64,000 bases of DNA, from contig JBGPFE010000003.1 in assembly GCA_041483135.1 (NCBI GenBank), forward strand, positions 6,035 to 70,034, read 5' to 3'. This document shows, piece after piece, positions 1,938 through 64,000 of this stretch. The position numbers and the translations under genes are program-made. The notes under the pieces are model-generated. The model did no database searches. It was not told the DNA's origin and saw nothing but the letters and a program-made list of their open reading frames with translations. Position 1 is the stretch's first letter; every line of letters begins with the position of its first letter. Source of the DNA: Gammaproteobacteria bacterium. Its GTDB lineage: Bacteria; Pseudomonadota; Gammaproteobacteria; Burkholderiales; SG8-41.

Positions 1938-2083
1938 GATTGAGTTGCGTCCAATACCCGATGCTTCTCCGCCACCCGCAAAAAGTACATTTGATATTGG
2001 GATGTTAATGCATTCATGCTCTATACTCACGCGCTTTAACAGGGGCGGCGGCGTCCGGCTGCTCCCTCGATCCTGGACCTCGA

Positions 2084-4045: not shown

Positions 4046-4102
4046 TCGCTGCGGCGGAATGCTACCCCGGCTCAGGCAGGGTGCATTCCTTGCAGGGAAC
4101 CT

Positions 4103-4510
4103 TCAGCCGGCGCCCACCAGCTGCATTACGCTCGCGCCAAAGTATTTCCACAGCGCGGCGAAAAACAGCATCCATAGCATCATGATGACTACCGCGGCGG
4201 TGATGCTCTTCGGCGTGGGGCGGTGCTCGGCGACCCACACGGCCGCCTTGGCCCGGGACTCGGTCAGCACCGGCTCCGGCACCAGCTTCAGGATGAAATA
4301 AATGCTGATCGGCAGCAGAATCAGATCGTCGAGATAGCCGAGCACCGGGATGAAGTCCGGGATGAGGTCGATCGGGCTCAGGAAATAGGCTACTACTACC
4401 AGCGCAAGGATCTTGGGCAGCCAAGGCATTCCCGGGTGCCGGCAGCAGAACCACAATGTGAGCCCATCGTTTTCGAGCGTCCTTGCCCAGCGCTTGAGCC
4501 GGTCCCACAT
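4103..4510 (-). CDS. YkvA/DUF1232 family membrane protein
   Basis: Conserved SPIDLIPDFIPVLGYLDDLILLP signature. Its ATG overlaps the rimO stop by 1 nt (TGATG). Confidence 0.75.
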   Translation of the reverse strand: MWDRLKRWARTLENDGLTLWFCCRHPGMPWLPKILALVVVAYFLSPIDLIPDFIPVLGYLDDLILLPISIYFILKLVPEPVLTESRAKAAVWVAEHRPTPKSITAAVVIMMLWMLFFAALWKYFGASVMQLVGAG

Positions 4511-48087: not shown

Positions 48088-48096
48088 GGGGAAAAT

Positions 48097-48408
48097 ATGA
48101 CTTTAACCAAGGCCGAGTTGGCAGATTTGCTGTTTGAGAAGGTGGGTTTCAACAAGCGCGAGGCCAAAGACATGGTGGAGTCGTTTTTTGAGGAGGTCCG
48201 CTTGGCGCTAGAACATGGGGAGGGCGTGAAGCTTTCGGGATTCGGAAATTTTCAATTGCGTGACAAGCCGCAGCGGCCGGGCCGCAACCCCAAGACCGGC
48301 GAGGAGATACCGATCACCGCACGGCGCGTAGTGACGTTCCACGCCTCGCAGAAGCTGAAGGCGATGGTTGAACAAAACTATAACAATGGACACAAACCAC
48401 AGTCCTAA
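48097..48408 (+). CDS. ihfA: integration host factor subunit alpha
   Basis: [28 protein letters not shown]...[26 protein letters not shown]. Confidence 0.93.
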
Positions 48409-48760
48409 GGAAACGCTGCCACCGATACCTGCGAAGCGCTACTTCACGATCGGTGAGGTGAGCGAGCTGTGTGGCGTGAAGCCACACGTGCTGCGTTACT
48501 GGGAGCAGGAGTTTACGCAGCTCAAGCCAGTCAAACGCCGCGGCAACCGGCGCTATTACCAACACCACGAAGTGCTGCTGATCCGGCGCATCCGTGATTT
48601 GCTTTATGATCAGGGTTTCACGATCAGCGGCGCGCGCAATCGTCTCGACGAGATCGTTTCCGAGCCGGCCAAAGCCAGCCGTGCCAGCGCCGCCAGCAAA
48701 GCGAATCTCGCCGTTCTGCGCAAGGAAATCAAGCACGTCCTCGATATTCTGCGCCGGTAG
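48386..48760 (+). CDS. MerR family transcriptional regulator
   Basis: [25 protein letters not shown]...RRYY is the helix-turn-helix. This is the usual partner downstream of ihfA. The start could instead be 48368. Confidence 0.8.
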
Positions 48761-48818
48761 TGCAGCCTGTACTTGCTGCGCTATTTGGTGTAGTCCCATC
48801 TGCTATAATTCTGAGCCT

Positions 48819-48896
<78 letters not shown>

Positions 48897-48906
48897 CAAA
48901 TTCAAA

Positions 48907-48936
48907 GGGATCCGATCAGGAGCCCTTTTTCATTTT
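48907..48936 (+). terminator. probable terminator after tRNA-Pro
   Basis: GGGATCC-gatca-GGAGCCC (one mismatch) followed by TTTTTCATTTT. Confidence 0.55.
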
Positions 48937-48973
48937 CAGAATTTTGCCCGGAACTGTCTAAGGAAGAGGCAAC

Positions 48974-49225
48974 ATGAGCGGCAGAACATGCATTTTCCGT
49001 GCAGCGATTTCGGTGCTGGCTGCTGCCCCGGCATCTTTGATGGCGCAGGCAGTCATCAAAAATCCCCTGACCTCGGCGCAGTCACAGGTTATTACCCAGT
49101 GGCAAACGCCGGCGGTGAATGAATTTCCGTTCGAGTCGTCGCTGCAGCTCGGTCTCGCTCCGGAACTGGGCCCGGCGTCATTCACCGGGCTCATACTGAG
49201 CGATGGTAGTACTATTACCGGGTAG
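48974..49225 (+). CDS. hypothetical small secreted protein
   Basis: 83-aa ORF with the signal-like AAISVLAAAPASLMAQA. No recognised domain, so this is a weak call. Confidence 0.3.
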   Translation: MSGRTCIFRAAISVLAAAPASLMAQAVIKNPLTSAQSQVITQWQTPAVNEFPFESSLQLGLAPELGPASFTGLILSDGSTITG

Positions 49226-49325
49226 AGGGGTCCAAGACGACAGCTATGCCTCCAGCGAACATGAAACCCGGTGCTTATTCGTTGCTGCTGACGAGGCGAC
49301 CAGCACCATCCCCGGAGTACTTTTG

Positions 49326-49850
49326 ATGAAATATTTGCTTCGCTACATTTTGGTTATATTTGCGTTATCGGTAACTCATGCCGCCGCCCAGCCGCTCAAG
49401 ATCGGTTACGTGAACGGACTCCGCATTGAGAGGGAAGCGGCGATAACGATGCAGGCGCTCGAACAGGCGAAAAAGGAATTCGCGCCGCGCGAGCAGCAGA
49501 TACTTGACCTGCAGAAACAGGGCCAGGCAATGCAGAGCGAGCTCGAAAAAGAAGGACTGACAATGTCGGCTGCCGACAAGCAGGCCAAGGAGAAACGCCT
49601 GGCGGCGCTCTCGCAGCAGTTTGCTCAGATGCAGCGCAGTTACAACGAAGATTGGGAAGTGCGCAGACGCGAAGTGCATGCGCGTCTCGTGACGGAAGTC
49701 AACGCCGTCATAAAAAGCATTGCCGAGGCAGGCAAGTTCGACCTGATAGTCCAGCAGGCAATTTTCAACAGCCCGCAGATTGATCTCACCGAACTGGTGC
49801 TGAAGGAGTTGGCGAAACGCGCGGCGACTGCGGCAAATCCCGCCAGGTAA
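49326..49850 (+). CDS. OmpH/Skp-family periplasmic chaperone-like protein
   Basis: Signal peptide MKYLLRYILVIFALSVTHAAAQ, followed by a coiled-coil region rich in Q/E/K (LEQAKKEFAPREQQILDLQKQGQAMQSELEKE). Confidence 0.75.
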   Translation: MKYLLRYILVIFALSVTHAAAQPLKIGYVNGLRIEREAAITMQALEQAKKEFAPREQQILDLQKQGQAMQSELEKEGLTMSAADKQAKEKRLAALSQQFAQMQRSYNEDWEVRRREVHARLVTEVNAVIKSIAEAGKFDLIVQQAIFNSPQIDLTELVLKELAKRAATAANPAR

Positions 49851-50009
49851 TCCGATCCGAAGTTAAGCCTCGGTGTAGTTGTAAAGCATGGCCAACGCGC
49901 GAACGAAATGCGTTCGACCGGTGACCACCGACGCGTTTGATCTTGTTCACGCTGTCCGGATCGGCATCGTAGTGCTCGCGAATCCGGTCTTTTTACCGTA
50001 GCAGTCATC

Positions 50010-50855
50010 ATGGCAACGTTCAAGGCTGCCTGCGTGCAGCTCAACTCGGGCAACGATATGGCGGTTAATCTGCGCGCGGCAGGCACTGGTGTGCGCGCGG
50101 CGGCAGAGCAGGGCGCGCAGCTCATCATGCTGCCCGAATACGTTGCGCTGCTCGACGGCAGTGGCCGCGTGATGCGCGAAAACTCCTATACCGAAAGCGA
50201 ACATCCTGCGCTGCCTGTGTTCCAGGCGCTGGCCAGGGAAACACGGGCCTGGCTGCTGATCGGCTCGCTCACGATCAATTTCGACGACGAGCACATGGCG
50301 AACCGTTCGTATCTGCTGTCGGCTGATGGCGCAGTCGTCGCGCGGTACGACAAGATCCACATGTTCGACGTGACGTTGCCGAGCGGCAAGGTAATCCGCG
50401 AATCGAGCGCTTATCGCCCCGGCGATCGGGCGGTGATCGCAGCTACGCCGTGGGGGCCGCTCGGCATGACCGTATGCTATGACCTGCGTTTCCCGTATCT
50501 TTACCGCGCACTCGCGCAGTCCGGCGCGATGTTCCTGGCGGTGCCATCTTCGTTCCAGCGCGAAACCGGCGTTGCGCACTGGCACGCGTTGCTGCGCGCG
50601 AGGGCGATCGAAAATCTGAGCTACGTGTTTGCGCCGGCGATGTGCGGCGATCACCCCGGCAACCGCATGACTTACGGCCATTCGCTGATCATCGATCCCT
50701 GGGGCAGGATACTGGCCGAATTGGACGACGAACCGGGTGTGGCGGTCGCCGACATCAACGCCGACGAAGTCACGCGTGTGCGCGGGATGCTGCCTTCGCT
50801 CGTCCACGATCGCGAATTTCAGCTCCCGCATCCCGCCGCCGGCGATCTCCGCTGA
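50010..50855 (+). CDS. carbon-nitrogen hydrolase family protein (nitrilase/omega-amidase-like)
   Basis: FKAACVQL, LIMLPEY, KIHMFD and the catalytic Cys in GMTVCYDLRFP. Confidence 0.88.
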   Translation: MATFKAACVQLNSGNDMAVNLRAAGTGVRAAAEQGAQLIMLPEYVALLDGSGRVMRENSYTESEHPALPVFQALARETRAWLLIGSLTINFDDEHMANRSYLLSADGAVVARYDKIHMFDVTLPSGKVIRESSAYRPGDRAVIAATPWGPLGMTVCYDLRFPYLYRALAQSGAMFLAVPSSFQRETGVAHWHALLRARAIENLSYVFAPAMCGDHPGNRMTYGHSLIIDPWGRILAELDDEPGVAVADINADEVTRVRGMLPSLVHDREFQLPHPAAGDLR

Positions 50856-50863
50856 ATTTTCAT

Positions 50864-51766
50864 ATGGCGATTGTCCATAACCCGACCATCGCGGTTTTCA
50901 CCAAGAACAACACTAACCCGGCATACGCCGCGGCGCGGCTCGGCGCCGACCGCACCGCGCAGCGATTGGGCGCGCGCGCCCGGCATTACTTTCCGCGCAA
51001 ACCCGACGACGTCGATGAGCAGATTGCGTTGATAGACCAGGCGCTCTTGCAGCGACCCGATGCAATGGTGCTCGTTGCCGTGCATCCAACCGCGATCAAC
51101 CCTTCGATCCACAAAATCAACGCTGCCGGGATTCCGGTTGTGAGCTATATCAATCGCTTCACTGGCGGCGATTGCGTTACATACGTCGGTTCGGAGGATT
51201 ACCCGCTGGCAGTCAAAATCGCGACTTATCTTTGCGGGCAGCTCGCTGGGCGCGGCGACGTTGCGATCGTCGAGGGGCCGGGCGATTCGATCACCAGCCG
51301 CGAGCGGGTGCGCGGATTTCACGACGTGCTGAAGGGCTTTCCGGCTGTGCGTGTCGTCGCGTCGGTGTGCGGCGAATATCAGCGTGACCCGGCGCAGCGT
51401 GTGTTCGCGGAATTGCTGAAAACGATCCCGCGCATTGACGGCGTAATCGCGGCCAACGACATCATGGCGATCGGCGTCATCGAAGCGCTCGAGGCAGCAG
51501 GACGCACCAGCAGGGTTGTCGGCGTCAACGCGATACCCGAAGCGATAATTGCGATCAAGCACGGCAAAATGCTCGCAACCGCCGATTTCAATGCGATGAA
51601 AATGGGCTGCCTTGCGACCGAAGCCGCGCTGCGGCACCTGCGCGGCGAGGCGCTGCCGAAAGAAATCATCCTGCCGGTGCAGATAATCGATCGCGCCAAC
51701 TTTGCGGATTGGGACAGGCCGTTCGAGTTGCGCGAGTGCCCGCGGTGGAAAGATGTGGTGATGTGA
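50864..51766 (+). CDS. periplasmic-binding-protein type I (sugar-binding/LacI-core-like) domain protein without signal peptide or HTH
   Basis: IAVFTKNNTNPAY..., DAMVLVAV, GIPVVSYINRF, GPGDSITSRERVRGF and IAANDIMAIGVIEAL. Start taken at ATG 50864. The longer ORF overlaps the hydrolase gene. Confidence 0.7.
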   Translation: MAIVHNPTIAVFTKNNTNPAYAAARLGADRTAQRLGARARHYFPRKPDDVDEQIALIDQALLQRPDAMVLVAVHPTAINPSIHKINAAGIPVVSYINRFTGGDCVTYVGSEDYPLAVKIATYLCGQLAGRGDVAIVEGPGDSITSRERVRGFHDVLKGFPAVRVVASVCGEYQRDPAQRVFAELLKTIPRIDGVIAANDIMAIGVIEALEAAGRTSRVVGVNAIPEAIIAIKHGKMLATADFNAMKMGCLATEAALRHLRGEALPKEIILPVQIIDRANFADWDRPFELRECPRWKDVVM

Positions 51767-51822
51767 TCCCGAGGCCGGATTCGGCAAATGGCGAACCGAG
51801 ATACGTGGAAACGGAGCAGGCG

Positions 51823-52300
51823 ATGCGATTTTTCCCGATGTTGCTGTGCAGAGAGGCCGTATTTATCATATCCGGTATCGCGCAAGCGCAGGCGTCTTAC
51901 CCGTTTAGTCCGATACGACTGATCGTGCCATTCCCGCCCGGCGGCACCAGCGACGTTGCTCGGCCGCATCATCGCGCAGTGGCTGGGCGCTGACGGACCT
52001 CATGGGCGGGCAGATCCAGCTCATGTTCGAGAACGCGCCGACTGCGTTGTCCTATGTGCAGTCTGGCAGGCTGCGCTTGCTCGCGGTGACCAGCGACAAG
52101 CGTACACCGAGCTTTCCCGATCTGCCAACGATAGCCGAGGCGGGCGTGTCCGGCTACGCGGTGACCTCGTGGTTTACACGATGATAGTCTCTGTACCTGA
52201 CCGGCGAGTTGCGATCCCGGTGGCCGGGAGATTTCAACCGGGACGCAAGGAGTTGAACGCGGCAGTCATTGAAACTCTCCCCGCCCGAACGCCGGCACGA
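51823..52300 (+). pseudogene. eroded Bug/TctC-family tripartite tricarboxylate transporter substrate-binding gene
   Basis: Family blocks are scattered over three frames. These are MRFF...AQASYPFSPIRLIVPFPPGGTSDV, LGRIIAQWLGA in a shifted frame, TDLMGGQIQLMFENAPTALSYVQSGRLRLLAVTSDKRTPSFPDLPTIAEAGVSGYAVTSWF followed by stops, and ELNAAVIETL. The total is far shorter than an intact family member. Confidence 0.7.
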
Positions 52301-52308
52301 AGAAAGCG

Positions 52309-54090
52309 CTAGAAGAGCAGATAAGAGAGAGCGAAGTGTATCCCCGAGTCCTGCAGGTCATACGAATTCTGCAGGAAATGGCGGGTGGCCCTGGCCACGT
52401 AGAGCTGGGACTGGAACTGGCGGCCGTAGTCCCAAAGAAACCCCAGACCATAGCCCGCGATCGAATGCGGGGACGCCGGCGTCGCGTCCGAATTCCACGA
52501 GTTGCCGTAGTCGATGAAGGGCGCCAGCTGGAAGCGGCCTTTTCCCGGCTCGCCATCCGTGATCGGAATGCGGTACTCGACCGAAGCGATCACGCCGTTG
52601 TCGCGCAGCAACTGGTTCTCGCGGTAACCGCGCACGGTATTCATGCCGCCGAGGGCAATCTGCTCCAGCGACATGAGCGAATTCGGGGTGTACTGGACAT
52701 CGGTGCGGACGACGAGCTGATTGTTCTTGTACAGGCGTTTTGCCCACTGCACCTGGCCCAGCCAGGAAAAAAAATGCCGGCTCGGCCCGATGCTCGCCAT
52801 CTGCGGACCGGCGTTGGTCCAGCCGTTTGAGAACGTGGAGCGCAGCGCGAGCGCGTCCTCGGGACTGCGCCGCACCCAGTCCTGCGAAAAACGGATGACG
52901 TTGACTTGGCTGTGCCCGTCCGGCACGCCCGGCGTGAACGAGAAGGGTATGCCGAGCAACGAGGTCTGGTTCTCCCGGTACTCGTAGCGCAGCCCCAGCG
53001 AAATGGACTGGTTGATGGTGCGCCAGACCGGTTGCGTGAGTCCGGCCTGGTAGGTCCGCGCCCGGCTCTGGATATTGATTTGATCGAACGGCGTCTCCAG
53101 CACCTGCGAGTCCGTCTCGGTGACGCGCAGCGACAACGTGGTGTCGCGGGCGTTCAGCGGCAGCGCGTAGCCGATCTGATAATCGTCAACGCCATGGGTC
53201 AGGCCGTAACGGATGTCGAACGTATCGCCGCGGCCGGTCAGGTTGCGATTGCTGGCGAAAATCTCTCCGAGATAGGGACCGACGCTCGGCGGCCGCCGGT
53301 TGCTGAACGCCAATCCCACCTGGTAAGGCAGGGCTTCCTCGACGTTCGCTTTCAGCACGGCCTCCCCCGGGCGCGTACCCGGGGACAGTTCGGCATTGAT
53401 GCGCTCGATCAGCCCATCCTGCTGAAGAATCTGCAGGCGCTCCTGCAATTTGTTCCCATTCAATGGCGGGCCGGCGCCGAGCAGGATGCGGTCGATGATG
53501 TATCCGGATTTGAGCTGCTGGTTGCCGGTGATCTCGATTTGGCTGAGCTTGCCTTCGATGATTTCAAAGCGCACGACACCATCCTTGACCTGCTGGTCGG
53601 GAAGCAGTGCGCCGGAATTCAGGTAGCCTTTTTTGATGTAGGCGAGGGTGAGCTTGTTCCTGAGTTCCTGCAGGTCCTCGGAAGTGACGATGCGGTTTTC
53701 ATATTCCTTCGTGATGCCCGCCAGCTCCGCAGCCGGAATGACTTTGTTGCCGGTAATCACGACGCGCTTTACGAAAACACGCAGCCCGGGAACCAGCCTG
53801 CCCGGCTCAACCGGCGGGATAGGCGCGGGCGGCAGCGCGAAGGGGCTGGGTTGCGGCTCGCGAAACGGCGGCAGCAGCGGCCGGGTGTCGCTGGGCCGCT
53901 GCTCGAATGGCGCGGGCGCCGGCGGCACCTGCGCCAGGGCGGCCGCGGCGCAGCACAGCATCAGCGCGTACGCGCAAGCCCGCTGCACCGCCAAGTTACG
54001 CAAACGCCGCCGCTGACTGCAAAACTGCGCGTCGAGCCTGGCGCCGCTGTCACTCCCTGACACGTTTTTTTTCTGTTGTATGGTTGTCAA
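52309..54090 (-). CDS. ShlB/FhaC/HecB-family two-partner secretion transporter (TpsB)
   Basis: Signal region, Pro-rich linker, and POTRA region (VVITGNKVIPAAELAGITKEYENRIVTSEDLQELRNKLTLAYIKKGYLNS). Omp85-type barrel ending in ...HFALSYLLF. The TTG start at 54090 is uncertain. Confidence 0.9.
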   Translation of the reverse strand: MTTIQQKKNVSGSDSGARLDAQFCSQRRRLRNLAVQRACAYALMLCCAAAALAQVPPAPAPFEQRPSDTRPLLPPFREPQPSPFALPPAPIPPVEPGRLVPGLRVFVKRVVITGNKVIPAAELAGITKEYENRIVTSEDLQELRNKLTLAYIKKGYLNSGALLPDQQVKDGVVRFEIIEGKLSQIEITGNQQLKSGYIIDRILLGAGPPLNGNKLQERLQILQQDGLIERINAELSPGTRPGEAVLKANVEEALPYQVGLAFSNRRPPSVGPYLGEIFASNRNLTGRGDTFDIRYGLTHGVDDYQIGYALPLNARDTTLSLRVTETDSQVLETPFDQINIQSRARTYQAGLTQPVWRTINQSISLGLRYEYRENQTSLLGIPFSFTPGVPDGHSQVNVIRFSQDWVRRSPEDALALRSTFSNGWTNAGPQMASIGPSRHFFSWLGQVQWAKRLYKNNQLVVRTDVQYTPNSLMSLEQIALGGMNTVRGYRENQLLRDNGVIASVEYRIPITDGEPGKGRFQLAPFIDYGNSWNSDATPASPHSIAGYGLGFLWDYGRQFQSQLYVARATRHFLQNSYDLQDSGIHFALSYLLF

Positions 54091-54109
54091 TTACCGGCGA
54101 AGTTGTTTT

Positions 54110-57100
54110 TTATTTCGAACAGCCGAAATCGTTCTGCGCCAGCAGAAGAGACTGATTGCCGCTGCCGTTGGTTATGTCCGCTGCTGCAACCGCGGGCGAA
54201 TTCATCGAAGCGGAACTCGGCAGCAAGCCGGCCGGCTCCACCGGCATGCCGCCGCGACCCGCCAGCACGAAGCTGCTCGCCTTGCCGGCGAGGCGCGCGG
54301 CGCAGCGCTCCGCGAGCAAATTACTCACATCCAGATAGGCCGTGGGAAGAGTGACGAGATTGCTGGTCAGGTCGACAATCGGCGAGCTGATCGAAACCGT
54401 CCCGCTGACGCCAAGCTGCGAGGACGCCGAGATCACGCTGCCGGGCGATTCGAAGATGTTGCCAGCGGTGATGTTGATGTTGCCGCCGTTGCCGCCGAAG
54501 GCGTTGGCGATGATCTGGCTGCTTTGCAGCACCACGAAGGTGGGGTCGATGGTGATGTTGCCGCCGTTGCCGAGGCCGGCCCCCACCGTGGTGGTGATTT
54601 TGCTGTCCTGCAGGGAGACCAGCACCCCCGCATGAATGTCGATGTTGCCGCCGTCGGCGCGGATCGACTCGGTCGTGATCGCGCTGCCGCCCGTGAGCTG
54701 CAGCGAATTGCCCGCGTTCAGCACGATGTGCCCGGCGAGGCCGCTGCTGGTGGATTTGGCGCTGATGCTCGAGCCGCCATCGAGCAGGATATCGCCGGCG
54801 TTCACCGTGATCGTGCCGCCGCGCCCGCTCCAGTTGGTGCTGGTGTCGATGCGGCCGCCGGCGCTCAGCGCGAGCCGCCCGGCGTTGAGCGTGACGTCGC
54901 CGGCGTTGCCGGTGCCGTTGGTGTTCGACGCGATGCTGCGCCCGGCGACCGCGAGCACCGGGGCGGTGATCGTGATGCTGCCGCCGTCGCCCTGCGTGTT
55001 GATCAGGGTCGAGGTGTCGATCGCGGGCAGGAAGTGGTTCGTCGTGGGCATGATGGAAACCGATCCGCTCGCCGCGATATTGATGCTGCCGCCGCGGCTG
55101 GAGCCGAACAGCACGCTCGCGCCGATATTGGAATCGCCCTGCATCAGCAGGCTGCCCACGCTGAGCGAAATCACGCCGGCGTCGGCGCCGAAATTGGTGT
55201 TTGACTGGATCGAGCCGCCGTTCATCGTCAGCAGCGGCGTGGTGACCGTGATCGCGCCGCCGCGTCCGCCGAAATAAGTCGACGCATCGAGTCCGCCGAG
55301 TTGCGTCGGGCCCGCGGTGATCTCGATGCGGTCGCTGGCGTTGACGTTGAGATTGCCGCCGTCGCCGTTGCCGAGGTAGCTCGAGACCGAGAGCTGGCCG
55401 TCGCCCAGCAGCCGCAGCGTGCCGGTCGTCACGTTGATATTGCCCGCGCGCCCCTGGTCGTGGGTGATGGCGAGGATGGCCGCGCCGTCGACCACCAGCA
55501 ACGGCGTCGCGATCGTGATCGAGCCGCCGTTGCCAATGCTGTCGGCCTCGCTGCTGATTCCGGTCAATGCCGCGCCAAAAACCTGCAGCGACGAACTGGC
55601 GCGCAGGTCGATATCGGCGCCGGCGCCCGCGCCCCAGGTGGTGCTCCGTATCGGGCCTGCGACCGTGACATCGGCGCCCTGGATCAGGATGCCGCCGGTG
55701 GTGCCGCTGCTGTAATTGGTGGAATCCACGATGCCGTCCGTGATGCCGATCTGCGGCGCCGTGAGGGTGATGGCGCCGGCGCCGCCGGTGGTGGTCGCCA
55801 CCGAACTCACCGTGCCGCCGTTCGACAGATTCAAACTTTGCGCGGCCGTCAGCACGAGGTCGCCGCTGCGGCCGGCCGCATAGCTCGCAGAGGCCACCGC
55901 GGCGCCGTCGGCGATGCTGATGCTATTCGCCTGCACGCTGATGTTGCCCGAGTTTCCGGGGCCGAAGGTGGCGGTGGACAGGCCGCTCAACACGCTCGCG
56001 CTTTCGTTGCCAGCGATCGCCACGCTCCCCGTCGCGGTCAGCATGATGTCGCCGCCGCGTCCGCTGCCGTACGTTTCGGTGAGCACGCGGCCGCCGCTGT
56101 CGAACTGCGCCGAGCCGACGTTCAGGTTGATGCCGGCGCCATTGCCGCCGGCGGTGGCGAACGAGTAGATATTGCCGCCGGTGTCGATTGTCAATTGCGG
56201 CGCGGTCACCGCAATCGTGCCGGCGGACCCGGCGCCGTTGCTGCCGGCGTACAGCCCGCTGCGGTTGCCGGAGATGTCGGTGCCGGAGATCACCACCGGC
56301 GCGCTGCTCGTGATCGTTTGGTTGCCGCCCGCTCCGGTTCCGCTCACGGAGGTATCGAGAAACGAACCGCCGGTCAGCGCGACGCCGGCGGCCGTGAGCA
56401 GCAGATTGCCGCCGCTGCCCGCGCCGAGATTGCGCGCGGTGATGGCGCTGCCCGCGAGCGACGCCATTCCGCTCAGCGCCAGTTCGACGTTGCCGCCGGC
56501 GCCCGGTTGGTCGTGATCGGAAGTGAGCGCCGAGTTCGTCATGGTCAGCGTGCCGCCGCGGATGAAAATATTTCCCGCCGTGAGACCGGGCACGCTGTCG
56601 GTCTGCAGCAGCGATCCGCTGAAGGTCAGCAGCGAAGAGTTGGCGGCGACCGCCGCGCCGATGCCCGGCGCGGCGGGCAGCACTTCGCCGGGCGCGCTCA
56701 CGCCCGCGATGTCGATCTGCCCGCCGGCCGCGCGCAGCAGCGCGTTCGTCAGCGTGACGCCGCCGCCGAAGAGCGACAGCGTCTGGCCGTCGGGCATCTG
56801 CAGCGTCGACCCCGACACCGTCACTGGTGCCGGATTCGCGTTCAGGAACCCGAACGCCGAAGGCGGTGCGGAGGTCAATACGCTGTTGGCGGGCGTGGTG
56901 GCGTCAAAGCGCCCGTTGCTGCCGAGCTTCACGTAATCGGCGGTGCTCGCGTGAAACGAGCCGCTGATGTTGAGGCTCGCGTTGGGGCCGAAGGAAATCC
57001 CGAGCGGATCGATCAGGAAGAAGTTCGCGCCGCCTATCGTCGAAGCGATCTGGCCGTCGATGCTCGAGGCGCTGCCGGTGACGCGGGTGATGACGTTGGC

Positions 57101-57352
57101 AACCGGGGTGGTCGAGGAGAAGGTCGCGGTTTCGCTGGTGCCGATATTGAAGGTGCCGAAGCTGAAGAAGAGGTTGCCGCCGGCGCCGCCGACGATCTGG
57201 CCGTAGGTCTGGGTGATGGGGTAGTTGGGGCCGTTGATGGTGCGCACGGCGCCCAAGGTGTTGTCGGTGACCACGCTGCCGGCGGCGAACGCCGGAACTG
57301 CCTGCACCGCGAACAGCGCAAGCGCAAAGCGATACACTGCGGCTTCTCTCAC
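54110..57352 (-). CDS. TpsA-like filamentous-haemagglutinin N-terminal (TPS) domain protein, paralog 1
   Basis: Short signal peptide, then the TPS domain. Key blocks are VVTDNTLGAV, NLFFSFGTFNIG, VITRVTGSASSIDGQI and ANFFLIDPLGISFGPNA. A Gly/Ser/Thr/Asn-rich beta-helix-type repeat region follows. The conserved C-terminal module is ERCAARLAGKASSFVLAGRGGMPVEP...NDFGCSK. The GTG start at 57352 was chosen by alignment with paralog 2. The track ORF starts at TTG 57370. Confidence 0.85.
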   Translation of the reverse strand: MREAAVYRFALALFAVQAVPAFAAGSVVTDNTLGAVRTINGPNYPITQTYGQIVGGAGGNLFFSFGTFNIGTSETATFSSTTPVANVITRVTGSASSIDGQIASTIGGANFFLIDPLGISFGPNASLNISGSFHASTADYVKLGSNGRFDATTPANSVLTSAPPSAFGFLNANPAPVTVSGSTLQMPDGQTLSLFGGGVTLTNALLRAAGGQIDIAGVSAPGEVLPAAPGIGAAVAANSSLLTFSGSLLQTDSVPGLTAGNIFIRGGTLTMTNSALTSDHDQPGAGGNVELALSGMASLAGSAITARNLGAGSGGNLLLTAAGVALTGGSFLDTSVSGTGAGGNQTITSSAPVVISGTDISGNRSGLYAGSNGAGSAGTIAVTAPQLTIDTGGNIYSFATAGGNGAGINLNVGSAQFDSGGRVLTETYGSGRGGDIMLTATGSVAIAGNESASVLSGLSTATFGPGNSGNISVQANSISIADGAAVASASYAAGRSGDLVLTAAQSLNLSNGGTVSSVATTTGGAGAITLTAPQIGITDGIVDSTNYSSGTTGGILIQGADVTVAGPIRSTTWGAGAGADIDLRASSSLQVFGAALTGISSEADSIGNGGSITIATPLLVVDGAAILAITHDQGRAGNINVTTGTLRLLGDGQLSVSSYLGNGDGGNLNVNASDRIEITAGPTQLGGLDASTYFGGRGGAITVTTPLLTMNGGSIQSNTNFGADAGVISLSVGSLLMQGDSNIGASVLFGSSRGGSINIAASGSVSIMPTTNHFLPAIDTSTLINTQGDGGSITITAPVLAVAGRSIASNTNGTGNAGDVTLNAGRLALSAGGRIDTSTNWSGRGGTITVNAGDILLDGGSSISAKSTSSGLAGHIVLNAGNSLQLTGGSAITTESIRADGGNIDIHAGVLVSLQDSKITTTVGAGLGNGGNITIDPTFVVLQSSQIIANAFGGNGGNINITAGNIFESPGSVISASSQLGVSGTVSISSPIVDLTSNLVTLPTAYLDVSNLLAERCAARLAGKASSFVLAGRGGMPVEPAGLLPSSASMNSPAVAAADITNGSGNQSLLLAQNDFGCSK

Positions 57353-57498
57353 CCCAGCCTGCCTTTGCAACCGCGTGCCAACTTCACAGCCTGCGATGCC
57401 GAGGGCATCCGCATGCTGGTGGAATTGAACCGAGCATCCATCATATCGCCCCGTTCCCGCCCATGGAAATGTTCGCCGTCACACCGGCGAGGTCGTTT

Positions 57499-60400
57499 TT
57501 ATTTCGTGCAGCCGAAATCGTTCTGCGCCAGCAGAAGAGACTGATTGCCGCTGCCGCCGCCCACGCGCGCTGCAACCGCGGGCGGATGCAGCGCGGCGGA
57601 ACTGGGCAGCAAGCCGGCCGGCTCCACCGGCATGCCGCCGCGGCCCGCCATCACGAAACTGCTCGCTTTGCCGGCCAGGCGCGCGGCGCAGCGTTCCGCC
57701 AGCAGGGCGCTCACGTCAAGATAAGAGGTCGGCAGCGTCACGAGGCTGCTCGTGAGATCGACGATGGGCGAGGTGATGGTGACCGTGCCGCTGATGCCGA
57801 GCTGCGAGGATGCCGAGATCACGCTGTCAGGCGATTGGAAGATGTTGCCGGCGATGATATCGATATTGCCGCCGTTGCCAGCGACGGCGTTGGCGATGAT
57901 GCTGCTTCCGTTTAGAACCACGAAGGTGGGGTCGATTAAAATGTTGCCGCCGTTCCCCGCCCCGCCGCCGACGCTCGTCGTAATGCGGCTGCCATTGAGA
58001 GAGACCAGGTCGCTGGCAAAGATCTTGATATTGCCGCCGTCGGCGCTATCCGCTGCAGCCGTAATGGCGCTGTTATCCATGCGCAGGCTCGCGCCGGCAT
58101 TAATGATGATGTCTCCCGCATTACCTGATCCCGTACTCTTAGAGGTGATTTGAGCGCCGCTGTCAAGAGTTACTGATTGGCCGGCAGTAATGGAAATTTG
58201 CCCGCCGAGTCCCGAGCTTTCAGCAATTGCAGAAATTCCGCTGCTGTTTCCGGAGATGGAGATGTTGTTGGCTTTGACCGATATAAATCCGGCATTGCCT
58301 GAATCGGATGTGCTCGCCGATATTTGTCCGCCGCCCGTTAGAGTCAGGCCCTGCGTGGTAATCAGAACATCGCCGCCGTCGCCATTCGCGTAGACGTCAG
58401 AAGATATCCCGGTGAAGTTTGCGCTGGCAGACCCGTCGATGGCGATGTTGTTGGCGTCGACCGATATCAGCCCGCCTTTTCCCGAACCGGAGGTGTCTGC
58501 AATGATGAATCCGCCAGCGGCCACGCTCAGACTTTGGGTGGTGATCAGAATACCGCCGCCGTTGCCTGTGCTCCCTGTCTCAGCCGTTGCGAACAATCCG
58601 CTGCTGTTTCCGGAGATAGCGATGTTGTTGGCTTTGACCGATATTATTCCGGCATTCCCTGCATCAAACGTGCTCGCCGAAATTTGTCCGCCGCCGGTCA
58701 GGGCCAGGCTCTGCGTGGTTATCAGAATGCCGCCGCCGTCGCCATTCGCGTTGACGTCAGAAGATATCCCGGTGAAGTTTGCGCTGGCAGACCCGTCGAT
58801 GGTGATGTTGTCGGCGGTGACCGATATCACTCCCCCTTTTCCCGGGCCGGAGGTGTCTGCGGTGATCACCCCGGTATTTGTCAGGGTCAGACCCTGGGTG
58901 GTAATAAAAATACCGCCGCCATTGCCTGTGCTCCCCGTCTCAGCCGTTGCGAAAATTCCGCTGTTGCCCCCGCTGTTACTTCCCGAGATAGCGATGTTGT
59001 TGGCGGTGATCGATAAGAATCCAGCATTCCCTGCATTGTTCGTGCTCGCCGAAATTTGCCCGCCGCCGGTCAGGGCCAGGCCCTGCGTGGCAATTAGAAC
59101 ATCGCCGCCATTGCCATTCGCGAAGACATCGGAGGAAATCCCGGTAAAGAAACCCCCGCTGCCAGTCCCGTCAATGGTGATGTTGTTGGCGGTGACCGAT
59201 ATCAACCCGCCTTTTCCCGGGCCGTGGGTGTCCACTGTGATCTGCCCGGTATTTGTCAGGGTCAGGCCCTGGGTGGAAATAAAAATATCGCCGCCATTGC
59301 CATTCGCGAAGACATCGGAGGAAATCCCGGTAAAGAAACCCCCGCTGCCAGTCCCGTCGATGGTGATGTTGTCGGCGGTGACCGATATCACCCCGCCTTT
59401 TCCCGAACCGGAGGTGTCTGCATCGATCAATCCACCGGCGGCCACGGTCAGGCTCTGGGTGGAGATCAGAATATCGCCGCCATTGCCTGTGCTCCCCGAA
59501 TTAGCCGTTGCGAAAATTCCGCTGTTTTTTCCGGATATGGCGATGTTGCTGGCGTTTACAAGTGTCGTTCCTCCATTCCCGGCACCGCGGGTGGAGACTA
59601 TGAGCTCTCCACCACCCATCAAGTTTAGATTTTGCGTGGTAATTTGAATATCGCCGGCATTGCCTGTACTTCCTGCCCCAGCACTAGCAAAAATCGCGCT
59701 GGAAAATCCCCCGCCTGTGCCGGAGATGGTGATGTCGTTGGAGTTGACGGATACCGACCCTGCATTCCCTGAACCGTTGGTGAGGGCCTGGATCTGCGCG
59801 CCATTCAGCAGGTTTACTGTCTGGGCCTGAATATCAATGCCTTGGCCGTTCCCGGATTTGGTATCTGCATATAAAAAAGACTGGTCAAGAGTCAATTGAC
59901 CGCCGCGGATAAAAATCGAACCGCCGCCAGTTACTGAGCCGACTGGTTCGCTCGCATTGACGTAACTATTTCCGGCCAGCGAAATGGCGCCCAAGGCGGC
60001 GAAGGAACTTACGTCCACTCCCCCGGTGGTCAGTCCCGCTTCGCCGCCCGAGGCCACGCTCGCAAGATTGACGACGCCGGAGAGCGCTTGCAGGTGGGCG
60101 CCGTTGGTCAGGCTGATGTCGCCCGCGACTACGGACAGCGTCTGCCCCGCGGGGACCGACAGCTGGCTGCCGTTGAAACTGATGGACGCAGGCGTGGGCC
60201 CCAGGAACCCGAACGCCGAGGGCGCTGCGGAGGTCAATACGCTGTTGGCGGGCGTGGTGGCGTCAAAGCGCCCGTTGCTGCCGAGCTTCACGTAATCGGC
60301 GGTGGTCGCGTGAAACGAGCCGCTGATGTTGAGGCTCGCGTTGGGGCCGAAGGAAATCCCGAGCGGATCGATCAGAAAGAAGTTCGCGCCGCCTATCGTC

Positions 60401-60720
60401 GAAGCGATCTGGCCGTCGATGCTCGACGCGCTGCCGGTGACGCGGGTGATGACGTTAGAAACCGAGGTGGTCGAGGAGAAGGTCGCGGTCTCGCTGGTGC
60501 CGATATTGAAGGTGCCGAAGCTGAAGAAGAGATTGCCGCCGGCGCCGCCGACGATCTGGCCGTAAGTCTGGGTGATGGGGTAGTTGGGGCCGTTGATGGT
60601 GCGCACGGCGCCCAGGGTATTGTCGGTCACCACGCTGCCGGCGGCGAACGCCGAAACTACCTGCACCGCGAACAGGAGGAGTGCGAAGCGATACGTCACC
60701 GCTAGCAACGGATTTCTCAT
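57499..60720 (-). CDS. TpsA-like filamentous-haemagglutinin N-terminal (TPS) domain protein, paralog 2
   Basis: The TPS domain is nearly identical to paralog 1, the core consists of 58-63-aa tandem repeats, and the C-terminal module is the same (...GRGGMPVEP...NDFGCTK). The ATG at 60720 is preceded by AGGGG. The track ORF starts at 60765. Confidence 0.85.
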   Translation of the reverse strand: MRNPLLAVTYRFALLLFAVQVVSAFAAGSVVTDNTLGAVRTINGPNYPITQTYGQIVGGAGGNLFFSFGTFNIGTSETATFSSTTSVSNVITRVTGSASSIDGQIASTIGGANFFLIDPLGISFGPNASLNISGSFHATTADYVKLGSNGRFDATTPANSVLTSAAPSAFGFLGPTPASISFNGSQLSVPAGQTLSVVAGDISLTNGAHLQALSGVVNLASVASGGEAGLTTGGVDVSSFAALGAISLAGNSYVNASEPVGSVTGGGSIFIRGGQLTLDQSFLYADTKSGNGQGIDIQAQTVNLLNGAQIQALTNGSGNAGSVSVNSNDITISGTGGGFSSAIFASAGAGSTGNAGDIQITTQNLNLMGGGELIVSTRGAGNGGTTLVNASNIAISGKNSGIFATANSGSTGNGGDILISTQSLTVAAGGLIDADTSGSGKGGVISVTADNITIDGTGSGGFFTGISSDVFANGNGGDIFISTQGLTLTNTGQITVDTHGPGKGGLISVTANNITIDGTGSGGFFTGISSDVFANGNGGDVLIATQGLALTGGGQISASTNNAGNAGFLSITANNIAISGSNSGGNSGIFATAETGSTGNGGGIFITTQGLTLTNTGVITADTSGPGKGGVISVTADNITIDGSASANFTGISSDVNANGDGGGILITTQSLALTGGGQISASTFDAGNAGIISVKANNIAISGNSSGLFATAETGSTGNGGGILITTQSLSVAAGGFIIADTSGSGKGGLISVDANNIAIDGSASANFTGISSDVYANGDGGDVLITTQGLTLTGGGQISASTSDSGNAGFISVKANNISISGNSSGISAIAESSGLGGQISITAGQSVTLDSGAQITSKSTGSGNAGDIIINAGASLRMDNSAITAAADSADGGNIKIFASDLVSLNGSRITTSVGGGAGNGGNILIDPTFVVLNGSSIIANAVAGNGGNIDIIAGNIFQSPDSVISASSQLGISGTVTITSPIVDLTSSLVTLPTSYLDVSALLAERCAARLAGKASSFVMAGRGGMPVEPAGLLPSSAALHPPAVAARVGGGSGNQSLLLAQNDFGCTK
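58111..59769. repeat. in-frame tandem coding repeats (about 58-63 codons each, two alternating subtypes) inside tpsA2
   Basis: Residues about 333-885 of the 1088-aa ORF. Units start GKGG(V/L)ISV.. or GNAG(F/I).S... Adjacent units at 59101 and 59287 (offset 186 nt) share about 119 nt with 3 mismatches. Confidence 0.8.
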
Positions 60721-61120
60721 CTTTGGCCCCTGTGGTGGCGCCCCGAGCGCAGTCTGGTATGACAATTGCGTAGAAACATCACAACATACCTCTCCATGCC
60801 TGTCAATTTAGGTTGTGACTGCTCGATGCGCTGATGTAGTATCGGGCGCGTATCCTTCGATTCCAGCGGTAATACGTGCTTCGGCGATAGCTGCAGCGCA
60901 ATATGCCGGCAATGCCTTGAACATGGCAAGGCGAATCGTTCACGTATATGCCGTGAATATTTACGGGCCGAAGTTCGCCGGTTTTATTTACCATCCAGGG
61001 CATGGATCCAGTTGCGCCACGCGCTGGCTATGTAACTGCAATCCGCACGATCGCTGGTTTGAACGTGCGGGATTTTGCGGCCGCGAGATTTTCCCATCGA
61101 CCGTTTGAGGGGGGGCTGTA

Positions 61121-63436
61121 GTGGACTCCAAGCGTAGAGCAAATAGACTCCCGGTCATTTTCGCTGGTCTGGCCGCGGCAGTGTTGTTGCTTGCCTTGGG
61201 GATTGGCAACGCGGCTGAACCTTTGTCCGGTGCCGCATTGCGGGAACGCGTCGCGGCTGGCGACCGGCTTTTCCAGGCCGGGGATTTTGAACGCGCCCTG
61301 AACGAATGGGATCAGGCCTTGAAATCCTACAATCCCGACACGCAGCGCATGGAGCGGTCTGACGTATTATCGAAGATAGCCGACGCTTTCAGGGCGCTCG
61401 GTTATACCGAGCGCGCCGCCGTGACTCTGCAGCAGGCTGCCCAGTTATCAGCATCGGATGACGTTCGCACGGCCAGCATACTTTCGAACCTCGGCAGCGC
61501 CCTGCAGGCAGCGGGGCTGCTGAAGGAAGCGCGGCAGCAAATCGACACCAGCATCGTGCTTGCACAAAAAACCGGTCGCAGGGATATCGAGGCCGCGGCG
61601 CAGAACAATCGGGGCAATCTGCTCGCGGCTGCCAATGAAAACGATGCGGCAATCAGTGCCTATCAGCGCAGCATCGATCTCGCGGCCCAATCGGGCAACT
61701 CGCTGCTTCGAAGCCAGGCTCTCGTTAATGCGGCGCGCACGGCGGAGCGCACCGGCAAGCCTGACCAAGCTGTTGCGCTCGCGCAGGCGGCCGGCGAAGC
61801 CGCGACGGGGCTGCCGCCAAGTCATGACTCCGCCTATGCGTTGATCGCGGGGGGGCAGCTATACCTGCGACTGCAGAAGGCCACGCCGAGCCAGTCCTTG
61901 CTGGATGCCGCAGTCAGGGCGCTCAACGGGGCTCTGAAAATGGCGCGGGAAATCGGCGACCGCCGGGCCGAGTCGTATGCACTCGGCTACCTCGGTGAAC
62001 TCTACGAAAACGAAGGCCGTGTGGCCGACGCTCTTGATCTCACGCGGCGCGCCACGTTCGACGCGCAGCAGCTCAACGCGCCGGAGCTGCTCTACCGATG
62101 GAATTGGCAGACGGGCCGGCTGTTGAGGGCGCAAAACGATCCTGACGGCGCTATCGCGGCGTACCGGCAGGCGGTGGGCCAATTGCAATCGATCCGCAAT
62201 GATGTTCTGGTCAATTACACTTCGGGCCGGTCTTCATTTCGGGAGGTGTTCGCGCCGCTTTATTTTGAGCTCGCGGATTTGTTGTTACAGCAAGGGGCGA
62301 ATACCAAGGACCCTTCCCGCGTGCAACAGGCGCTGGTCGAAGCACGCGATACGATCGAGCGGTCCAAGTCGGCTGAGTTGCAGGACTACTTCCAGGATAA
62401 TTGCGTCACCGCGCTGCAGTCAAAGATTACGCAGGTCGAGAAGGTGGGGGCCAGGACCGCGGTTATCTATCCGATCCTGTTGCGCGACCGGCTCGAGTTG
62501 CTGGTCACTTTTTCCGACAGCATGCGGCAGTACAGGGTCGCCGTCGATGGGGCGTCTCTCGTCGAAGCAGTGAGAAATTTCCGCCTGCGGCTGGAGCGCC
62601 GCACCTCGCGCGAGTATCTGCCGCTGGCCCAGCAGCTCTACGGTTGGCTGGTGAAACCGTTTGAACCTGAACTCGTGTCCCGAAAAATCGATACTCTCGT
62701 GTTCGTGCCGGATGGCGCGCTGCGCACCATCCCGATTTCGGCGCTGCATGATGGCAAGCAGTATCTGATCAGCCGTTTTGCCGTCGCCACGACACCCGGC
62801 CTGACTCTGGTCGATCCCAGACCGCTTGAGGCTCACGCGAGCCAGGTGCTGCTCAGCGGCCTCACCGAACCCGTGCAGGGTTTTTCGGGCCTGCCCAACG
62901 TTGCGGCCGAACTGCAGGCGGTGCAGGAAATTGAAGGAGGAACACTTCTGAAGGACAAGGATTACGTCCTGCGCAACGTCGAGCAGGAATTTTCGCAAAA
63001 ATCATTTACCCTAGTTCATATTGCTTCGCATGGACATTTCAGCAGCGACCCGAAGCAGACTTTTCTGCTCACTTACGATGGCAAGCTGACGATGGATGGG
63101 CTCGAGAAGCTCATCGCTCCCAGCCGTTACCGTGATCAGCCGCTCGAGCTGCTGACGCTGAGCGCCTGCCAGACGGCCGCGGGCGACGACCGCGCGGCGC
63201 TTGGACTCGCCGGCGTGGCGGTAAAGGCGGGCGCGCGCAGCGCGCTGGCGTCCCTGTGGTTTATCAACGACCAGTCTTCCACTCTGCTCATTTCGGATTT
63301 CTATCGCTACCTCAAGCAGCCCGGCATGTCGAAAGCAAAAGCTCTGCAGCAAGCCCAGGTCAAAATGATCGGCGATAATCGTTTCGGTCATCCGGGCTAT
63401 TGGTCGCCGTTCCTTCTCATAGGGAATTGGCTTTAG
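61121..63436 (+). CDS. secreted TPR-repeat / CHAT-domain (caspase-like) protein
   Basis: GTG start after GAGGGGGGG, and signal-like LPVIFAGLAAAVLLLALGIGNAAEP. TPR-like repeats span residues about 40-400. The C-terminal CHAT domain has LVHIASHGHF (His637, 63029-63031) and LTLSACQTA (Cys683, 63167-63169). Confidence 0.88.
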   Translation: MDSKRRANRLPVIFAGLAAAVLLLALGIGNAAEPLSGAALRERVAAGDRLFQAGDFERALNEWDQALKSYNPDTQRMERSDVLSKIADAFRALGYTERAAVTLQQAAQLSASDDVRTASILSNLGSALQAAGLLKEARQQIDTSIVLAQKTGRRDIEAAAQNNRGNLLAAANENDAAISAYQRSIDLAAQSGNSLLRSQALVNAARTAERTGKPDQAVALAQAAGEAATGLPPSHDSAYALIAGGQLYLRLQKATPSQSLLDAAVRALNGALKMAREIGDRRAESYALGYLGELYENEGRVADALDLTRRATFDAQQLNAPELLYRWNWQTGRLLRAQNDPDGAIAAYRQAVGQLQSIRNDVLVNYTSGRSSFREVFAPLYFELADLLLQQGANTKDPSRVQQALVEARDTIERSKSAELQDYFQDNCVTALQSKITQVEKVGARTAVIYPILLRDRLELLVTFSDSMRQYRVAVDGASLVEAVRNFRLRLERRTSREYLPLAQQLYGWLVKPFEPELVSRKIDTLVFVPDGALRTIPISALHDGKQYLISRFAVATTPGLTLVDPRPLEAHASQVLLSGLTEPVQGFSGLPNVAAELQAVQEIEGGTLLKDKDYVLRNVEQEFSQKSFTLVHIASHGHFSSDPKQTFLLTYDGKLTMDGLEKLIAPSRYRDQPLELLTLSACQTAAGDDRAALGLAGVAVKAGARSALASLWFINDQSSTLLISDFYRYLKQPGMSKAKALQQAQVKMIGDNRFGHPGYWSPFLLIGNWL

Positions 63437-63444
63437 GACCGTTG

Positions 63445-64000
63445 GTGGAAAGGCTCCGCGAAGCGCTGCAGCAGCCAGCCGTGATCTGTTTCATCCTGGC
63501 GAACGTCGTCTTCCTGCTGCTGCTTGCCGCTCGTCACGGTGGCGCACTCGTGCCGCTCGAGCTGATTTCCTACGATCAGATGCTGCGGTCGCGGCCCGAC
63601 GCTGCCGCTGATTCCCGTATCGTGCTCATCGAAGAGACCGAAGAGGACATCCATCGCTACGGATACCCGCTATCCGATGAAAAACTGGCCGCCGCGCTCG
63701 AGCGACTGACCGCATACCACGCGCGCGCGATTGGCGTTGACATCTATCGCGACATACCGGTGGCGCCGGGTGAAGCCCGCCTCGCATCCATACTGAAGCG
63801 AAACCCGAACATCATATGGGTAAGCAAGTTCAGCGGCGACCAGCGCGCCGTGGCGCCACCCAGGGTTCTCGTCGGCACCGAGCAAGTCGGCTTTAATGAC
63901 CTGATCGACGATCCGGGTGGAATCGTCCGCAGAGGGATGTTGTTCCTCGATGACGGCAAAACCACGGCTTACTCACTGCCGCTGCGCCTGGCGTTGCATT
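63445..64000 (+). CDS. CHASE2 sensor domain protein (N-terminal part, continues beyond window)
   Basis: This frame is open with no stop from 63442 to 64000 and is absent from the ORF track. A TTG at 63442 or GTG at 63445 starts it, followed by the TM helix PAVICFILANVVFLLLLAA. The sequence then reads IVLIEETEEDIHRYGYPLSDEKLAAALERLTAYHARAIGVDIYRD...VGFNDLIDDPGGIVRRG, which is typical of a CHASE2 N-terminus. Confidence 0.8.
   Translation, partial: MERLREALQQPAVICFILANVVFLLLLAARHGGALVPLELISYDQMLRSRPDAAADSRIVLIEETEEDIHRYGYPLSDEKLAAALERLTAYHARAIGVDIYRDIPVAPGEARLASILKRNPNIIWVSKFSGDQRAVAPPRVLVGTEQVGFNDLIDDPGGIVRRGMLFLDDGKTTAYSLPLRLALH

Follow-up and report, generated by a model that had tools for sequence, protein, structure and literature searches.

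The two-partner secretion genes near the end of the window (a 64,000-nucleotide (nt) stretch of contig JBGPFE010000003.1, assembly GCA_041483135.1, from a gammaproteobacterium of the Burkholderiales) belong to a cluster of six genes covering ~16 kb, in which a TpsB transporter and two TpsA fibers are encoded next to a tetratricopeptide repeat (TPR)-CHAT protein, a CHASE2-cyclase and a DUF928 protein. Type Vb (two-partner) secretion with such a dedicated periplasmic caspase-fold protease module is widespread and uncharacterized, and seems to offer a new means by which a surface fiber is controlled or sensed. An earlier note on this DNA had described a five-gene cluster. The positions, strands, gaps and divergent orientation of its five open reading frames (ORFs) were borne out by an ORF check, and the TPS, ShlB, POTRA, TPR, CHAT and CHASE2 assignments were all recovered in profile searches (Pfam). 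There are nevertheless six genes, not five, because a Joint Genome Institute metagenome contig (L004), identical to the window from 47499 to 64000 (100% identity, 16,502 nt), carries on with the rest of the CHASE2 gene and then with the DUF928 gene, which had been missed. A second public contig, from an NCBI metagenome-assembled genome (MAG; L005, GCA_041496085.1), differs by one base.

Judged from sequence, the three minus-strand genes are a type Vb secretion system by every testable criterion. TpsB has a signal peptide, POTRA domains and a 16-strand-type barrel of the Omp85 family (Pfam ShlB, 8.5e-26; POTRA_2, 2.4e-18), with the loop-6 VRGY motif ('NTVRGYRENQ') and a C-terminal Phe ('LLF'), and a tpsA gene lies 19 nt away; the NCBI call of the protein begins 43 codons after the TTG start used here. 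Among the sequences in the Protein Data Bank (PDB), CdiB is the most similar (6wim, 3.8e-15), and FhaC is also matched (4ql0, 7.5e-10). Both TpsA proteins carry a Sec signal ending in '...AFA-AG' and a TPS domain (Pfam TPS, 5.6e-30 for TpsA1 and 9.6e-31 for TpsA2; NCBIfam TIGR01901 'adhes_NPXG', 5.4e-16 and 3.5e-17, respectively) with NPxG-type motifs, reading 'IDPLGISFGPNA' where the family consensus is 'INPxGxxFGPNA'. In the AlphaFold2 (AF2) model of TpsA1, built with 59 homologues (pLDDT 89.4), residues ~20 to 988 form an unbroken right-handed β-helix, whose top Foldseek matches are all TpsA proteins, namely EtpA (4.1e-11), HxuA (9.3e-07), the HMW1 secretion domain (1.3e-05, TMt 0.69), HpmA and FHA. 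Beyond TPS, no Pfam domain was found in TpsA, including pretoxin, toxin and hemolysin-type domains.

The two fibers share their ends rather than their shafts. TpsA1 and TpsA2 are 48% identical in amino acid sequence overall, and their genes are 95.5% identical over the first 493 nt (56843-57335 versus 60202-60694) and 83% identical over the last 463 nt (54110-54572 versus 57499-57957), while no DNA similarity is detectable in the central 2.3 kb. This pattern suggests that the two genes are mosaics, arising through gene conversion of the ends or through cassette-like exchange of the shaft. Near-constant ends around unrelated centers imply that both ends serve shared partners. Presumably, the common TpsB and common partners of the C-terminal tail hold the two ends constant, and the exposed shaft is free to vary. 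The center of tpsA2 contains tandem repeats of 360 nt and 186 nt (58233-59301, also 59063-59487) with 83%-94% identity, the 360-nt repeat encoding repeated β-helix coils, and the repeat number could vary between strains. The G+C content of this stretch is 56%-57%, versus 65%-69% in tpsA1.

The linkage of these genes is conserved far outside the window, which the earlier note had named as a test of its proposed proteolysis-coupled system. A profile (A1) of 19 CHAT members was scanned against one genome per species, and at least 566 of the 600 candidate stretches encode a CHAT relative. The best-scoring 80 loci, a Nitrospira-rich set, were kept, all their ORFs were translated and iterated searches were seeded with the window proteins, so that the counts below refer to our own iterated profiles and not to Pfam. 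The hosts include Nitrospira (among them the complete genome of Ca. N. defluvii), Verrucomicrobiota, Competibacter, Desulfonema magnum, Desulfobacter latus, Scalindua, Entotheonella, Terriglobia, Gemmatimonadota and alpha-, beta- and gamma-proteobacteria. Where at least 8 kb are available on each side of the CHAT gene (29 loci), TpsA is present in 26, TpsB in 25, DUF928 in 25 and the CHASE2-cyclase in 15, and the gene order is variable while the gene set is constant. Approached from the TpsA side, five of six sampled members adjoin both TpsB and CHAT (P0036, from a wastewater organism with complete genomes; P0064, from Geobacter sp. OR-1; P0004, P0086 and P0006); the sixth is a distant orphan with a P_proprotein domain. 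Among plasmid-borne proteins, the closest relatives of TpsB come from cyanobacteria, and many of their genes overlap or directly adjoin one annotated 'CHAT domain-containing protein'. Indeed, on Nostoc punctiforme pNPUN02, TpsA, TpsB and CHAT are consecutive, in agreement with the expectation of the note that similar neighborhoods exist in cyanobacteria. The arrangement recurs in many phyla, far more than chance would give, and this recurrence, seen from the CHAT side and from the TpsA side, supports the idea of a single functional unit. At its core are TpsA, TpsB and CHAT, with DUF928 nearly always present and the CHASE2-cyclase as a frequent accessory.

The same observations bear on the simplest reading of the locus, that an ordinary TPS adhesin, hemolysin or contact-dependent inhibition (CDI) locus lies by accident beside unrelated CHAT and CHASE2 genes. 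TPS and ShlB are indeed the only annotated features of the three minus-strand genes, and as in CdiA-CdiB, TpsB is nearest to CdiB in sequence and the exported protein is a β-helical TpsA. Unlike in CdiA-CdiB, there is neither a polymorphic C-terminal toxin nor an immunity gene: the TpsA C-terminus is kept across phyla, the 19 nt between tpsA1 and tpsB leave no room for an immunity ORF, and the Pfam search gave no pretoxin, toxin or hemolysin-type domain. Together with a neighborhood kept across phyla from both test directions, which refutes an accidental association unless the sampled loci are unrepresentative, these features make this reading scarcely credible, and the view that the locus is not a classical hemolysin or CDI locus holds.

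Apart from the TPS domain, the C-terminal tail, a defining feature that the earlier note had missed, is the most conserved part of TpsA. In TpsA1, the tail of ~85 residues follows the β-helix and is predicted to be largely disordered (pLDDT <50 at residues 992-1004 and 1006-1075 in the AF2 model), and it bears the motif 'ERCAARLAGKASSFVLAGRGGMPVEP'. The only Cys residues of TpsA1 are Cys1012 (54302-54304) and Cys1073 (54119-54121), and the only ones of TpsA2 are Cys1011 (57688-57690) and Cys1071 (57508-57510), so that in both proteins a pair of Cys lies in the tail. Across phyla, the tail consensus reads '...LL..RC(A/S)AR..G..SSF.V.G(R/K/H)GG(L/M)P..P..'. A variable stretch comes next, and most members then have the second Cys at 2-3 residues from the C-terminus; as a linear motif, the consensus can be written C-x8-12-SSF-x-V-x-G-[R/K/H]-G-G-[L/M]-P-x-x-P. 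The layout of the Nostoc TpsA tail is identical. In 213 family members of at least 600 residues each, with the tail taken as the last 130 residues, a tail Cys is always present (213/213), exactly two are found in 166, the final Cys is at most six residues from the C-terminus in 142, and 150 have no Cys outside the tail. The frequency of Cys is 0.0140 in the tail versus 0.00068 in the body, a 20-fold difference. When the last 190 residues of TpsA1 were compared with 1.84 billion representative proteins, 7,802 clusters matched at E ≤ 1e-10, and among the best 150 of these 7,802 all except two (P0386 and P0479) have the matched region at or close to the C-terminal end. By these similarities, TpsA proteins with such a tail are a very large subfamily.

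The TPR-CHAT protein has TPRs at residues ~40-350 and a nearly complete CHAT domain (Pfam 5.8e-57, residues 501-769, 288 of 289 model positions). The note had taken Cys683 for the catalytic Cys; indeed, Cys683 (63167-63169, 'LSACQTA') and the catalytic His637 (63029-63031, 'HIASHG') are invariant in 19 homologues of ~50% identity. The family is tight, comprising >120 clusters at ~50% identity over the full length. The N-terminus (residues ~1-32, 61121-61216) contains KRRANR, a hydrophobic stretch of 19 residues and 'GNA-AE', and looks like a signal peptide or a signal anchor, as had been proposed; a hydrophobic export segment precedes the first TPR in 78 of 80 CHAT homologues. Since either type of signal would have the same outcome, the TPR-CHAT body is predicted to face the periplasm. 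In searches of the PDB, all matches of the single sequence and the best 60 of 155 matches of the profile are TPR proteins, with no solved CHAT protein among them. The mature protein has one further Cys, Cys428 (62402-62404), which is likewise invariant and sits within 'AELQDYFQDxCV', ahead of the Pfam CHAT domain; in the periplasm, it might form a disulfide with the invariant Cys of the TpsA tail.

During two-partner secretion, the exported protein passes TpsB with its C-terminus last. We propose that TpsB would export the two paralogous β-helical TpsA fibers, which have the TPS secretion domain and the C-terminal tail in common, and that the tail would remain at the periplasmic face of TpsB as a disulfide-closed "hook" tethering the fiber to the cell. 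The Sec-exported TPR-CHAT would then bind the tail via its TPRs and cut it, causing release or maturation of the fiber; DUF928 may serve in the periplasm as a cofactor, an inhibitor or a second substrate. In loci that have it, the CHASE2-adenylyl cyclase would convert the periplasmic state of the system into cyclic AMP (cAMP). The periplasmic position of the tail, its cleavage by CHAT, the role of DUF928 and what CHASE2 senses are parts that we infer, and we give the scheme as a whole, in which the fiber is held by, or reports through, its periplasmic tail, somewhat less than an even chance.

The nearest precedent for this scheme is the CdrA-CdrB/LapG/LapD system of Pseudomonas aeruginosa, in which a C-terminal cysteine hook retains CdrA in the CdrB pore and LapG, a periplasmic Cys protease, cuts CdrA and so releases it (PMC7616799, PMC4694147). 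Both comprise a type Vb fiber, a periplasmic cysteine protease and an inner-membrane cyclic-nucleotide protein, here assigned from sequence and analogy. Retention of the fiber by its tail and CHAT-dependent cleavage are favored because this logic recurs with different parts: LapG is transglutaminase-like, whereas the protease here is a caspase-fold TPR-CHAT with a peptide-binding TPR array, encoded inside the locus; in the CdrA system a cyclic di-GMP receptor sequesters the protease (inside-out), whereas here a CHASE2 sensor would make cAMP (outside-in); furthermore, DUF928 is an extra component, and the tail motif bears no relation to the LapG site. No LapG or LapD homologue was found in the locus, which is thus not a member of the CdrA/LapG group, although its mode of working may be alike.

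Several observations weigh against the proposed scheme. About 20% of the 213 family members have a single tail Cys, so not every member can have a disulfide hook. At the basic position of the motif, H, Q and Y also occur. Cleavage by CHAT behind an invariant Arg ('GRGG' in the tail, 'SRG' in DUF928) was considered as well and is weakened, since H, Q, Y or K replaces the Arg in many tails; a simple site with Arg at P1 is therefore unsupported. The export signals were judged by a hydropathy heuristic rather than by a trained predictor, and, as has been suggested for DdvA (PMC11506125), a CHAT domain can be inactive at rest or have itself as its target. Roughly half of the loci lack the CHASE2-cyclase, and some (Geobacter, Desulfonema, Nostoc) have no DUF928, so the core may be TpsA-TpsB-CHAT only.

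A conserved tail that is nonetheless disordered, together with a dedicated, co-encoded protease, would also fit constitutive maturation, in which the tail is an FhaB-like pro-segment for folding or for the timing of secretion that CHAT always removes, DUF928 is a chaperone, and there is neither regulated release nor signaling. In Bordetella, the periplasmic C-terminal prodomain of FhaB is removed by several proteases, and FhaB is processed by unrelated serine proteases. The resemblance of the locus to FhaB-FhaC extends to the TPS domain, the β-helix shaft and the match of TpsB to FhaC, and FhaB is described as having a large C-terminal prodomain that is lost in the course of secretion (PMC4542190). 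However, that prodomain is very large (a preproprotein of ~370 kDa becomes ~250 kDa), and the tail here, ~85 residues bracketed by two Cys, is far below its size; no CHAT, DUF928 or CHASE2 is known to be involved in the FhaB-FhaC system. Furthermore, the TPR-CHAT proteases studied are switched, craspase by RNA and separase by securin, with DdvA resting inactive, and the frequent CHASE2 sensor argues for regulation. We consider constitutive maturation quite improbable.

The note had suggested sequencing downstream for the output domain of the CHASE2 protein, and the contig identical to the window supplies it. The windowed part covers positions 2-138 of the 257-position Pfam CHASE2 model (3.5e-29), since the window ends inside the domain, whereas the full 642-residue protein matches CHASE2 (3.4e-59) and Guanylate_cyc (1.8e-21). 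The protein is thus a CHASE2-class III nucleotidyl cyclase whose cyclase part sits beyond the window, with a transmembrane (TM) segment at residues 12-30, a periplasmic CHASE2 domain, three TM helices (328-392) and then the class III cyclase domain. Its best PDB match is the adenylyl cyclase CyaB of P. aeruginosa (3r5g, 1.9e-31), and in the alignment to 3r5g it retains both metal-binding Asp, the Lys of 'DKYIGD' and the Asn and Arg of 'VNTAFRLES'; we read it, by similarity, as a probable active adenylyl cyclase.

An apparently active cyclase behind a CHASE2 sensor raises the main alternative, trans-envelope sensing, in which the fiber is chiefly an antenna rather than an adhesin whose release is controlled, contact, load or a ligand at the exposed β-helix alters the periplasmic tail, CHAT together with DUF928 cuts the tail or a partner, and the product or complex is the CHASE2 ligand that leads to cAMP. 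Since the output of the sensor is cytoplasmic, information would flow inward. The CHASE2-cyclase adjoins the CHAT gene in 15 of the 29 well-flanked loci, and variable fiber centers with constant ends would fit exposed, diversifying receptor surfaces. There is also a precedent in Sinorhizobium meliloti, where the outer-membrane β-barrel protein NsrA is needed together with the CHASE2 cyclases CyaK and CyaD1/D2 for perceiving an extracellular protein and raising cAMP (PMC13001267, PMC7529298); a TpsA fiber, a CHAT protease or DUF928 is not reported for that system. On the other hand, about half of the loci have no CHASE2 gene nearby, so CHASE2 signaling cannot be the core function, and we know of no structurally defined ligand for any CHASE2 domain. 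On balance, we regard trans-envelope sensing as rather unlikely. A more specific version, in which contact or load on the fiber is signaled through its Cys-bracketed tail to the caspase-like protease and CHASE2 has the cleavage product or DUF928 as its natural ligand, leading to cAMP, is in our judgment unlikely; if true, it would represent a bacterial extracytoplasmic signaling cascade of the caspase type and provide the first defined ligand class for CHASE2.

The DUF928 protein (Pfam DUF928, PF06051, 9.1e-41) has a signal peptide and belongs to a family for which we know of no function. Its AF2 model (pLDDT 86.7) comprises an immunoglobulin (Ig)-like sandwich (residues 65-167) and a five-helix bundle containing 'G.WYDA', and a fold search of the PDB gave only generic Ig/FN3 β-sandwich matches with TM-scores <0.32. 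The N-terminal segment is disordered and invariant ('Y.PP.RG.P..R.GGG.RG'). This motif is rich in Gly, Arg and Pro and resembles the motif 'G(R)GG(L/M)P..P' of the TpsA tail, and one common partner may recognize both. In two of the loci that lack DUF928, a different small secreted protein follows CHAT: a DUF4384 protein in Geobacter sp. OR-1 (L087, 16939-18521) and a Cys-rich protein of 339 residues on Nostoc punctiforme pNPUN02 (L086, 15934-16953), the sequence of which suggests a β-rich middle and a helical C-terminal part. These two proteins may substitute functionally for DUF928.

The only characterized periplasmic TPR-CHAT protein is DdvA of Myxococcus xanthus (PMC11506125), a defense regulator. 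As in DdvA, the protein here has the separase/craspase-type architecture with a His-Cys dyad (PMC11506125). DdvA is TM-anchored to a cytoplasmic zinc anti-sigma domain, is proposed to cut itself and is without a three-helix motif; it occurs in Myxococcota only and has no TPS partner, whereas the protein here is a stand-alone exported TPR-CHAT. This precedent, together with the variable fiber centers and the location of some relatives on cyanobacterial plasmids amid transposases and NB-ARC or kinase genes, would be consistent with envelope surveillance or defense, in which the periplasmic TPR-CHAT senses an invader- or damage-derived molecule, as proposed for DdvA, and the fiber serves as a decoy or receptor. 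However, PADLOC found no specific match to a defense system, only generic TPR and class III cyclase homology and weak BovA matches on the CHAT domain (E 0.0024 and 0.0095). The surroundings are housekeeping in the window and in most loci, and no effector or toxin is encoded. We consider a role in defense very improbable.

The features of the cluster and their coordinates are listed in Table 1. The gap between tpsA1 and tpsA2 is 128-161 nt, depending on the tpsA1 start chosen, and 5-8 nt separate the CHAT gene from the CHASE2 ORF, whose start is at 63442 (TTG) or 63445 (GTG). The divergent region presumably holds the promoters of both directions; a promoter and terminator scan gave no signal above the shuffled expectation. 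A Shine-Dalgarno-like GAGGGGGG lies 6 nt upstream of the GTG of the CHAT gene.

Table 1. Features of the cluster (window positions unless a contig is named)
Feature	Position	Strand	Basis or remarks
tpsB	52309..54090	-	593 residues from TTG; Pfam ShlB and POTRA_2, CdiB/FhaC matches
tpsA1	54110..57337	-	1075 residues, equal to the public gene call; longest ORF reaches 57370
tpsA1 C-terminal tail, residues 990-1075	54113..54370	-	predicted disorder, conserved motif, Cys statistics
tpsA2	57499..60720	-	1073 residues from ATG; Pfam TPS
tpsA2 C-terminal tail	57502..57759	-	motif as in the tpsA1 tail
Tandem repeat within tpsA2	58233..59301	-	period 360 nt, 2.9 copies, 83% matches
Divergent intergenic region between tpsA2 and the CHAT gene	60721..61120	.	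400 nt; sequence
TPR-CHAT gene	61121..63436	+	771 residues; Pfam CHAT
5' part of the CHASE2-adenylyl cyclase gene	63442..64000	+	186 codons; leaves the window
Rest of the CHASE2-cyclase gene	L004 5351-7279		full protein 642 residues
DUF928 gene	L004 4612-5322		236 residues

According to the gene calls on contig L004, housekeeping genes lie on both flanks of the cluster: one flank has an acyl-CoA dehydrogenase, and the opposite flank has a periplasmic binding protein, a nitrilase-type hydrolase, Skp/OmpH, IHF and pheT. The gene for the Skp/OmpH-type periplasmic chaperone (49203-49850; Pfam OmpH, 3.8e-23) is 2.5 kb from tpsB, among IHF, MerR and pheT, and is not part of the conserved neighborhood elsewhere, as judged by the gene calls of the nine loci for which they exist. 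The best matches of the window proteins are betaproteobacterial, for example from Gallionella, Sulfuricellaceae and Burkholderiales, and the host is known as a MAG.

Some loci elsewhere show variations on this layout. In the wastewater organism that encodes P0036 (L001-L003, 13859-14251 and 18591-19422), a gene for a HicB-like antitoxin lies between tpsA and tpsB, and a DUF6901 gene between CHAT and DUF928. Two apparent fusions were rejected. A TpsB-CHAT fusion in L053 (an ORF of 1366 residues), which would have provided a Rosetta-stone link, is an artefact of an N in the MAG contig (around 3400-3500) that masks the tpsB stop, and the CHAT part has its own Met and signal peptide. A supposed CHAT-CHASE2 fusion in the Scalindua MAG L019 is a different, cytoplasmic protein with no CHASE2 domain. 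This protein of 1514 residues (1248-5792), which is encoded beside the cluster, has a CHAT-like N-terminus together with class III cyclase and STAND/TPR parts, and by its predicted domains is a second, different pairing of CHAT and cyclase.

Two-partner secretion is regarded as the simplest secretion pathway, with few accessory factors known. The earlier note knew of no experimental description of this gene combination, and our full-text literature searches likewise found no paper joining CHAT with TPS, TpsB, hemagglutinin, CHASE2 or DUF928; for DUF928, the literature searched held one unrelated paper. The proteins of the cluster are annotated only generically in the sources. Thousands of environmental TpsA proteins with a dedicated exported caspase-like protease and DUF928 would thus represent a large, unstudied branch of type V secretion, carried by phyla that include nitrite oxidizers, anammox bacteria, sulfate reducers and cyanobacteria. 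A concrete, testable handle on this system is the short conserved tail that carries the Cys pair. The system would assign a function to DUF928, would give periplasmic CHAT proteases a physiological role and may reveal what CHASE2 domains sense. Furthermore, several hosts, among them Nitrospira, Competibacter and Scalindua, live in the flocs and biofilms of wastewater plants, where the control of a surface fiber would be of practical interest.

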